From a virus: a stretch of DNA of 21,407 bases. The stretch lies in UHGV virus genome UHGV-0286550; one strand, 5' to 3'. A model generated the notes under the pieces. That model was not told where the DNA came from, ran no database searches, and worked only from the letters and a program-made list of their open reading frames with translations. Below are positions 1 to 1,056 of this stretch, in pieces (the stretch's first letter is position 1; each line of letters starts with the position of its first letter). Position numbers and translations under genes: made by a program.

Positions 1-743
1 TTGATGATGTGATCCTAATCTCTTCAGGTACGCTACCGCCCTTGGCTTAACAGCTACCAATACACTGGAGGTAATGCTTATTTGTAACTGGATAAAATTC
101 ACTCAGACGGTTTGACCTTTTTAATAGTCGCAAAAAAATTTCAGCAGAAATTATTTCCGCAGGGATAAATAGATCTATTTCCGTCTCGTTTCTTCTAATC
201 CATTCTTCAGGCATGAATGGATTCGGTCTTCTGGTAATTTCAGAAAACTGGCCGTTTTAGAATGCAGATTTAATTTCTCAGGAAATTATTTTTTATTATT
301 ACTGTTAACTACTTGATTATAATACCCCCTATGGATTTTATGCGTAACAATACCTGCAATCCGTTTCAAACCAGAACGCACGCGATTGATTACCAATAAA
401 TTGTTCACCAAGAAACTATTTCCCTATTTAAAATTCACTCGTGTACTTCTTATTTATATCTACAGCCCCCTCTTTACAGCCATATTTGTGATTTATATCA
501 CATTTAAATGGTGTTATTTAAGTCGCACCAATAATCCCGAAGGTAATTATTTTCGTCGATTAAAATATACATCTTGATTATTTTGTGTATTTATTTTAAC
601 CAGTGTTACAACCAACACCATCCCTCAGTAGATATACCTGAGCAGACATTTCTTAAAATCGACGAATAGTTTCACTGGAAATTATTATGCTTATTTGAAA
701 TTCCCTTTCTGATTATCTCCAGGAATTGTGGGGTAGTGATCAA

Positions 744-879
744 TTCTGGGCGGAGTTCGTGCAGCCTGGTAGAACCTGCAAGCCTTGTGTGGCGCGGGGT
801 ATGGTGATTTAGTGTGATTCTGGGCGGATTTGTGAGAAATGACCAAAAGTGCCTTTTTTTACGCTTTATTCTGGGCGCT
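744..879 (+). repeat. Three direct copies of ATTCTGGGCG(G/C) at 744-754, 818-828 and 869-879; candidate transposase end-binding sites (L1-L3 analogues)
   Basis: Seen in sequence. Copies 1 and 2 are both preceded by TAGTG; spacings are 74 and 51 bp, within ~150 bp of the proposed end, analogous to the MuA-binding sites in attL. Confidence 0.45.
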
Positions 880-912
880 TTTGATCTGGTGGTGTAAGAA
901 AGCGATCTCCTT

Positions 913-950
913 TTAAAAGATTTTAAAACTCGTTTAAAAGATTCTAAAGC
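913..950 (+). repeat. Tandem 17-bp AT-rich direct repeat TTTAAAAGATTYTAAAR (913-929 and 934-950), 21-bp period
   Basis: Seen in sequence, between the putative end sites and the 3' end of the repressor gene. Could be an IHF/HU-type bending site or an accessory end element. Confidence 0.4.
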
Positions 951-1056
951 CCGTTCTAATCTTGTCTGATTTATTCCTTTCTTATCAGTTGTCGGTATTG
1001 GTTTTGTTGGATGTCGCTAGTTAGTTGGCAGCATACGCCTACCAAGTAGTAGGCGT

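Follow-up and report, generated by a model that had tools for sequence, protein, structure and literature searches.

Bacteriophage Mu is the reference system for DDE (Asp-Asp-Glu) transposition, and mini-Mu combined with MuA finds wide use as a laboratory tool; the packaging (pac) site of Mu lies within its left end. In Tn7, which produces target duplications of 5 bp, TnsB recognises multiple sites of ~22 bp that are asymmetric between the two ends. MuA binds its enhancer through the I-alpha domain and the ends through I-beta and I-gamma (PMC3362531), and the published target-site duplications are 5 bp for Mu and 6 bp for B3 (PMC8705779; PMC3362531), the B3-type phages being ~36-39 kb long with TG...CA ends (PMC8705779). 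Among the Mu-like prophages of Citrobacter rodentium ICC168, CRP99 transposes to many sites, and direct repeats of 3-7 bp at insertion sites were described in a paper that defines no transposase-binding sites and no fixed duplication length (PMC3072379). Here we analyse the virus genome UHGV-0286550, a stretch of 21,407 nucleotides that we call the window, in which a short piece of Escherichia coli chromosome is followed by a prophage. We consider it very likely, with a probability of roughly 0.9, that positions 727 to ~880 are the left attachment end (attL) of a Mu-type prophage in E. coli and that three copies of ATTCTGGGCG within it are L1-L3, the binding sites of the element's own MuA-family transposase, which is encoded 1.4 kb inward (Table 1).

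The three repeats are exact, lie on the + strand at 743-752, 817-826 and 868-877 and are followed by G, G and C, respectively, as the eleventh base; no further copy with up to one mismatch exists in the 21.4-kb window. The chance expectation for the window is 0.10 exact copies, and none of 100 dinucleotide-preserving shuffles reached three. All of the repeats are found within 152 bp of the element end, as a preliminary description of this DNA, which counted three repeats in the first ~150 bp, had it. The same description placed a 5'-TG end at 728. The TG end was confirmed and the junction lies close to that place, but the element begins one base earlier: many E. coli chromosomes share positions 1-726 at 100% identity, whereas the sequence from 727 on corresponds to a prophage that other E. 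coli genomes carry at very different loci, with alignments beginning at 726/727. The uninterrupted allele (locus L002) reads ...CTCCAGGAAT|TTTACTAATT, with the break before TTTACT (also given as CAGGAATTTTAC). The empty site and the starts of the alignments of independent insertions therefore set the junction at 726|727 and the start of the element at the T of TG (727-728).

The window ends inside the phage, and the right end was studied in ten full-length copies that represent nine independent insertions, which lie within or beside yfcC, eutC (strain E2348/69), carB-caiF, trg (a single site shared by two strains), melR-melA, scpC, a PAAR gene, araJ and a lambdoid prophage. Each of these sister copies opens with TGTGGGGTAGTG and closes with CGCGAAGTTACA (TGTGGGG...GTTACA), and their lengths are 34.9-37.4 kb. 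The carB-caiF copy is 100% identical to window positions 726-2200, and its right end, read inward from the tip, is TGTAACTTCGCGATTTTTTCTGGGCTGATTGACGCACAATTCTGGGTGATTTGCGCACCATAAAAAAGCCCAGAATTGACC; the eutC copy of E2348/69 is of the same phage type, ~90% identical at the left end and with the same sites. Read inward, the right-end cores are TTCTGGG at 18-24 (R1) and 40-46 (R2), with GCCCAGAA in the opposite orientation at 68-75 (R3), so that, counting the right end of the sister copies, each end has three sites. Inverted motif copies, which had been expected at the other end, are thus present in the sister copies, including the one that matches the window perfectly. R2 lies exactly 22 bp inward of R1, and the L1 and R1 cores both start 18 bp from the tip (18-25 bp) and hence share one register from the cleavage end. 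No integrase gene was found at either end of the element, the nearest genes at the left end being those for the repressor, Ner and the transposase. The element has no fixed attB, as it sits at nine differing loci in the sister copies and in a kps-like leader in the window. An attachment site of an integrase-type prophage, with the repeats as arm-type sites, was ruled out by the lack of an integrase at the ends and by insertion sites that vary between genomes.

An exact direct repeat of 4 bp abuts TG...CA in nine of nine independent insertions (L001, L003-L007 and L053-L055), the duplicated tetramers being GACA, CACT, ACTT, TTTG, GAGA, TATC, AGTA, AAAT and TACG. In the uninterrupted eutC and carB-caiF alleles the tetramer is present in single copy, and the same script returned 5 bp (GCCGC) for a Mu control, the prophage of E. 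coli W. The 5-bp duplication anticipated in the preliminary description was therefore not borne out. Alternative ends, with the left T or the right A assigned to the flank so as to rescue 5 bp, fit some insertions and fail others; because the terminal T and A are constant and one-base shifts break some insertions, 4 bp is the only consistent length. We found no report of a 4-bp duplication in a Mu-like phage and no paper on the ends of the E2348/69 Mu-like prophage, in literature searches that covered few subscription journals, so that either absence is weak evidence. For the window copy, the right junction is predicted to read ...GTTACA|GAATTTTACT, that is, ...CGCGAAGTTACA followed by GAATTTTACTAATTTCC. 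An A directly precedes the tetramer at six of the nine sites, and a T directly follows it at one further site and at the window's own site; this may hint at a target preference of the form A|NNNN|T.

Homologous transposases are frequent in E. coli, Salmonella, Citrobacter and Yersinia as well as in further genera. When the transposase was scanned against a single genome of each bacterial species, 40 loci at 26-61% identity were obtained, and the footprint of the end was derived from sixteen left ends, in this family of Enterobacterales prophages, whose limits could be set. These 16 ends have in common the terminus, the layout of three sites and the distances between them (L1 core at 18, L2 at ~89-93 and L3 at ~131-143), with TGTGGGGnnGTGATCA-type termini also in relatives from Serratia, Pectobacterium, Morganella and Yersinia and near variants in Pantoea, Sodalis, Klebsiella sp. 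MISC125 and Phytobacter. The core changes with the lineage: TTCTGGGCG in the E. coli type of the window, TTCTGGAC[AT] in Serratia sp. H1w, Pantoea, Sodalis and E. coli C5, TTTT[AG]CA[TC]A in Serratia sp. PL17, Pectobacterium and Yersinia, T[AT][TC]TGCACT in Morganella, TT[AC]TGCA[TC]G in Klebsiella sp. MISC125 and Phytobacter, and TTTGATAC[CT] in Klebsiella, Raoultella and Limnobaculum. A de novo search for triple repeats did not resolve the sites at four loci (L012, L022, L024 and L048), and phage records with related DNA helped little in defining ends, that of Klebsiella phage ST405-OXA48phi1.1 beginning within the repressor gene and thus having trimmed ends.

The closest comparison is offered by the prophage of E. 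coli C5, the transposase of which is ~94% identical to that of the window over the first 426 residues. Its sites are TTCTGGACT, TTCTGGATC and ATCTGGACT (GGACT, GGATC and GGACT), and ten substitutions are clustered at residues 137-188 (T137S, K139T, L142V, V146I, N163G, T177W, D181Q, S182E, S186A and V188L); the surviving R3 likewise reads TTCTGGA, an ISEc12 insertion having removed R1 and R2. From lineage to lineage, the form of the segment GVSTGSLDSW differs with the core class, with SLQEW as its counterpart where the cores are GGAC and TGCAC, R[TA]LN[GQ]W with the TTTTRCAYA core and EISLKRW with the TTTGATAC core. The covarying residues fall mainly on two helices predicted by AlphaFold, 138-151 and 177-190, the segment itself lying mostly on the latter. 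This covariation of the core with the N-terminal region of the transposase supports a distinct recognition specificity, as the preliminary description had suggested from the repeat sequence.

Two relatives bear further observations. The C5 prophage (L057 22567-23781 and 38130-40001) carries an IS3-family insertion in its head-tail region and is cut at the right end by ISEc12 just outside R3; with its right end truncated in this way, it is no longer able to transpose. A 70% identical relative of the transposase in Shigella sonnei and E. coli (P0055) belongs to a prophage inside an IS21 istB gene, the left end of which (L058 1-44) is TGTGGGGAGGTGATCATTTCTGGACT, with the same layout of three sites and TTTAAA boxes; this lineage is absent from complete E. 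coli genomes, and the left end alone was obtained. In Haemophilus phage SuMu, an inverted repeat ATTTTGCATAGCA is listed near the left end (PMC3447690); as TTTTGCATA in this repeat equals the Serratia/Pectobacterium/Yersinia core, the site class may extend to phages of the Pasteurellaceae.

Two other functions of the repeats have to be weighed against transposase binding. The repeats might be operators through which the phage repressor or Ner exerts transcriptional control, a role that would suit their location in a non-coding stretch downstream of the repressor gene and for which their direct orientation could allow cooperative binding. However, the same core recurs at the right end, 35 kb away and in the same register from the tip, and operator-like palindromes of another sequence sit between the repressor and ner genes. 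Moreover, E2348/69 carries a different repressor allele and diverges in sequence from ~+165 on, with cores that are unchanged, which indicates that the repeats do not track the immunity type, and Ner is identical (WP_000989761.1) in C5 despite the changed cores. We therefore regard operators as extremely improbable. That the repeats are chiefly a pac signal for the terminase appears scarcely credible as well: the position of pac inside the Mu left end and the frequency of phased repeats in terminase recognition sites speak for it, but pac is expected at one end only, whereas the core is found at both ends, inverted, and covaries with the transposase.

The transposase itself ties the element to Mu. 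Its family profile matches MuA in hhalign with 98.3% probability (E 1e-14), residues 1-594 being collinear with MuA 3-558, and D308, D374 and E414, in columns that are invariant in the family, align with D269, D336 and E392 of MuA. With ~24% identity over the aligned columns, it is, as judged from these profiles, a remote relative of MuA. By subdomain, the I-alpha match is strong (97%, E 6e-11) and the I-gamma match weak (E 0.008). Against the structures of the PDB, the family profile scores best with TnsB (E 9e-9), then with retroviral integrases, MuA being found at 2.5e-6. The AlphaFold model of the transposase has a mean predicted local distance difference test (pLDDT) score of 71.6, with 75-88 in the core-covarying region, and is helical over residues 88-275; its top Foldseek match is MuA in the Mu transpososome (4FCY; E 9e-17, 550-590 aligned columns, collinear) with a low template modelling score (TM-score), as expected for a flexible multidomain chain. 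By their position, residues 90-275 would correspond to the end-binding module.

Several points weigh against our assignment of L1-L3. Binding of the repeats by the transposase and cleavage at the terminal CA draw indirect support from the covariation of the core with residues 137-188, and this covariation follows phylogeny, so that the lineages are not independent events; the contrast between C5 and the window is the only one that is close to isogenic. Residues ~90-200 have no detectable similarity to MuA I-beta in hhalign (probability 0.3%), for which reason we name residues 100-200 position-equivalent only, and the equivalence of the core-covarying region to I-beta would rest on position, a helical model of moderate confidence and the Foldseek match of low TM-score. 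The L and R sites are delimited as cores and not as full sites or second half-sites, and R1 and some R2 cores depart from the L cores (GGGCT and GGGTG). Finally, the right end of the window copy lies beyond the window, and all statements on the right end rest on sister copies.

We nevertheless hold to the reading of 727 to ~880 as a Mu-type attL. By analogy with Mu, transposase subunits on the L and R sites would pair both ends into a transpososome, in which the transposase would nick each end behind its terminal CA and link the 3' ends to target DNA that the MuB-like ATPase has captured. A stagger of 4 bp between both joins, in place of the 5 bp of Mu, would on repair or replication leave the 4-bp duplication that every insertion shows. 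More tentatively, and with rather less than even confidence, we suggest that the element represents an Enterobacterales branch of the MuA-family transposases that has a 4-bp stagger and at least five or six transposase/end-site specificity pairs, in which the core is read by the helix at ~177-190 and TTTAAA boxes serve as a relocated enhancer for the I-alpha-like domain.

Table 1. Features at the left end of the prophage and in the adjoining host DNA, in window coordinates.
Feature	Position	Strand	Remarks
Host chromosome	1-726		Long leader 5' of a KpsM-like capsule ABC-transporter permease gene; empty site L002
JUMPstart element	29-67	-	Rfam RF01707, 58.5 bits
GAAT target tetranucleotide	723-726		Expected to recur at the right junction, beyond the window (inference for the window copy)
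Terminal 16 bp, TGTGGGGTAGTGATCA	727-742	+	Opens with 5'-TG (cleavage end); identical start at nine unrelated insertion sites
L1, ATTCTGGGCGG	743-753	+	Core TTCTGGGCG 18-26 bp from tip; R1 register equal; position kept in relatives
L1-L2 spacer	754-816	+	Conserved box TGCAAGCCTT (777-786) and GGCGCGG (791-797)
L2, ATTCTGGGCGG	817-827	+	Core 92-100 bp from tip; +89 to +93 in relatives, with lineage-specific core
L3, ATTCTGGGCGC	868-878	+	Core 143-151 bp from tip; ~+131 to +143 in relatives
AT-rich array, five boxes phased ~10.5 bp	911-960	+	21-bp tandem duplication
Hairpin with 8-bp stem, ACGCCTAC-caagta-GTAGGCGT	1035-1056	+	Read from sequence; T6 run a few bases on (1035-1072); abuts repressor stop codon
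Repressor gene, 215 amino acids	1057-1704	-	CI-type helix-turn-helix, Pfam PF07022 E 2.2e-6
Operator-like palindromes TATCCGAAGGGATA and TTATCCGCACGGATAA	1829-1869		Read from sequence; between repressor and ner genes
Ner-like regulator, 78 amino acids	1887-2123	+	Pfam HTH_35 E 9e-26; NCBIfam SfsB/Ner-type E 5e-16
MuA-family DDE transposase, 680 amino acids	2123-4165	+	Pfam Mu-transpos_C and HTH_Tnp_Mu_1 above cut-offs; D308, D374, E414
MuB-like AAA+ target-capture ATPase, 297 amino acids	4184-5077	+	Pfam AAA_22 E 9e-23, TniB E 5e-7

Just inside L3 lies an AT-rich array. The preliminary description had noted a tandem repeat of 17 bp here; a tandem repeat is indeed present, with a period of 21 bp (912-932 and 933-953, 86% identical), and a 10-bp period is given as well by Tandem Repeats Finder. 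The boxes are TTTAAAA at 912, 922 and 933, TTCTAAA at 942 and TTCTAAT at 954, with spacings of 10, 11, 9 and 12 bp. Nearly every relative has boxes of the TTTAAA type, spaced by a helical turn, immediately inward of L3: in a count that covered 17 left ends (those of 16 family members and of Mu), 36 boxes fall at +151 to +240, compared with 9 at +1 to 150 and 2 at +241 to 340, and their spacings are mostly 9-12 or 21-24 bp. No such boxes occur inside R3 at the right end, and the array is thus specific to the left end. Box number ranges from 0 to 5 among relatives; the five boxes of the window are, on the sequence, a 21-bp duplication of the usual pair, and the duplication is apparently recent. 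Two outward-facing promoter-like matches in the array are not counted as evidence, as the scan counts are near those of shuffles.

The array probably serves the left end as an accessory element that binds a protein or bends the DNA. On balance we lean towards an array that is intrinsically bent or bound by a host factor (IHF, HU, Fis or H-NS), or a pac site, or a mere separator between attL and the terminator. The 9-12-bp phasing of A/T tracts is a classic signature of curved DNA, the restriction to the left end would be expected for pac, and the variable box count and the recent duplication speak on this side too, although a position conserved in nearly all lineages argues for some function. 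It seems doubtful, if conceivable, that the array is instead an enhancer-like site for the I-alpha-like domain of the transposase, shifted to a place beside L3 in a phage with a repressor other than the Mu c type. Homology to MuA is clear in the I-alpha-like domain, which holds a block of largely invariant residues (41-53), the boxes stay in place in nearly all lineages irrespective of L-site core and immunity type, the operator/enhancer region of Mu has CTTTTCAAAAT-type repeats, and the repressor is unrelated to Mu c. On the other hand, this argument is purely correlative, AT-rich boxes are low in information, and Mu also has boxes after L3, in the weaker form of two TTCAAA boxes at 205 and 216, though its enhancer lies elsewhere.

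Several other elements stand at or near the left end. An (A/C)GCCTT box is present at ~+53-60 in most relatives. Between L2 and L3, at 837-862, an AAATGA box is followed by a T-run (GAAATGACCAAAAGTGCCTTTTTTTAC), and the pattern AAAATGA...TTTTTTGC is repeated in several lineages of differing L-site core. The 9-mer TGCAAGCCT is identical in the L1-L2 spacers of the window and of Mu (Mu 83-91), the ends being otherwise dissimilar; it is retained as a side observation, the similarity between the two left ends not exceeding that of shuffles. Rfam and tRNA scans of 700-1100 gave no matches, and promoter and terminator counts over 600-2200 were close to those of shuffles. The hairpin beside the repressor gene, unflagged by the terminator scan, is probably a terminator, and together with the T6 run it could halt transcription coming in from the left end. 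The repressor has no homology to Mu c (BLASTP E 1.7). The palindromes upstream, which are spanned by a third inverted repeat, are likely operators for the CI-type repressor or Ner.

On the host side, JUMPstart is the sole Rfam match. The KpsM-like permease gene lies directly to the left of the window, followed by its ATPase gene (permease against KpsM, E 1.4e-55, below the equivalog cut-off). The prophage sits ~726 bp upstream of the permease gene start, within the long leader/promoter region; the capsule-export operon may be severed from its promoter, and capsule expression may be affected. Farther inside the prophage, a DNA methyltransferase gene (13124-13864, + strand) lies between a DUF1804 (small-terminase-like) gene and terL; among the sister prophages it is present in L001, L003, L004 and L005 and absent in L006, L007 and L053-L055, as is typical of a moron. 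A tail-fibre/assembly segment near the right end has opposite orientations in L003 (34941-36553) and L006 (33286-35113), like the G segment of Mu. Beside it there is a 93-bp open reading frame remnant only and no annotated complete invertase, so that inversion may need an invertase in trans.

These ends offer a natural handle on how a transpososome sets site specificity and target stagger. If the specificity pairs suggested above are real, the family would be a ready-made set of Mu-like transposition systems, and it could supply orthogonal transposase/end pairs. In addition, with the ends defined as TGTGGGGTAGTG...CGCGAAGTTACA and flanked by a 4-bp repeat, one can delimit exactly a prophage type that is frequent in E. 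coli, Salmonella, Citrobacter and their relatives and for parts of which current annotation has only generic labels. That related prophages are "Mu-like" is already known; of most interest here are the 4-bp stagger and the natural series of site/helix specificities.

Among the known systems, the B3-type phages are likewise transposable prophages with TG...CA ends and a short target duplication, but they have a Tn552-family transposase and 6-bp duplications, in contrast to the MuA-specific transposase domains and the 4 bp found here. TnsB of Tn7 and of CRISPR-associated transposons (CAST) is the best PDB profile match of the transposase family and a strong fold match; the window element, unlike these, has no TnsA, TnsC or TnsD context and is a phage genome whose transposase has both the I-alpha domain and the C-terminal barrel of Mu. 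The C. rodentium ICC168 prophages CRP28, CRP99 and CRP49 can be likened to it through their published description, not through end sequences. Several proteins of the E. coli copies have WP_0129046xx accessions, which points, as a lead rather than a test, to a first sighting of these proteins in C. rodentium. The Mu-like prophage in eutC of E2348/69 is of the same phage type as the window prophage.

The likeness to Mu is extensive. Both elements have TG...CA ends, three sites per end with the best-conserved core ~20-26 bp from each tip, an L1 that is set apart from L2 and L3, R1 and R2 22 bp apart and an inverted R3; in the Mu sequence read for comparison, CGAAA lies at 22-26 in L1 and R1, at 44-48 in R2 and, inverted, at 57-61 in R3. 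The stop codon of the repressor gene (1057-1059) lies 331 bp from the tip, very near the ~330 bp first noted, and the c gene of Mu ends at 339 bp; the attL geometry of Mu that the preliminary description saw in this DNA is thus upheld. The gene order ner, A, B, the essentially random insertion, and the domain order and DDE triad of the transposase are also the same. In contrast, the left-end DNA has no significant similarity to that of Mu (alignment score 48, compared with 40 +/- 9 for shuffles), in agreement with the earlier view that the repeat is unlike the Mu consensus: the core is TTCTGGGCG and not ...CGAAA, and the 22-bp Mu consensus (...RCGAAAR) is not matched. L1-L2 and L2-L3 are 74 and 51 bp here and ~100 and ~40 bp as read in Mu, the target duplication is 4 instead of 5 bp, the repressor is of the CI type and not of the Mu c type, and no Mu-type enhancer that overlaps the operators and is shared by the repressor and I-alpha was identified here. 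By its ends, layout, gene set and transposase fold the element is a Mu-type transposable phage, and it is in the site consensus and the 5-bp duplication that it parts from Mu.

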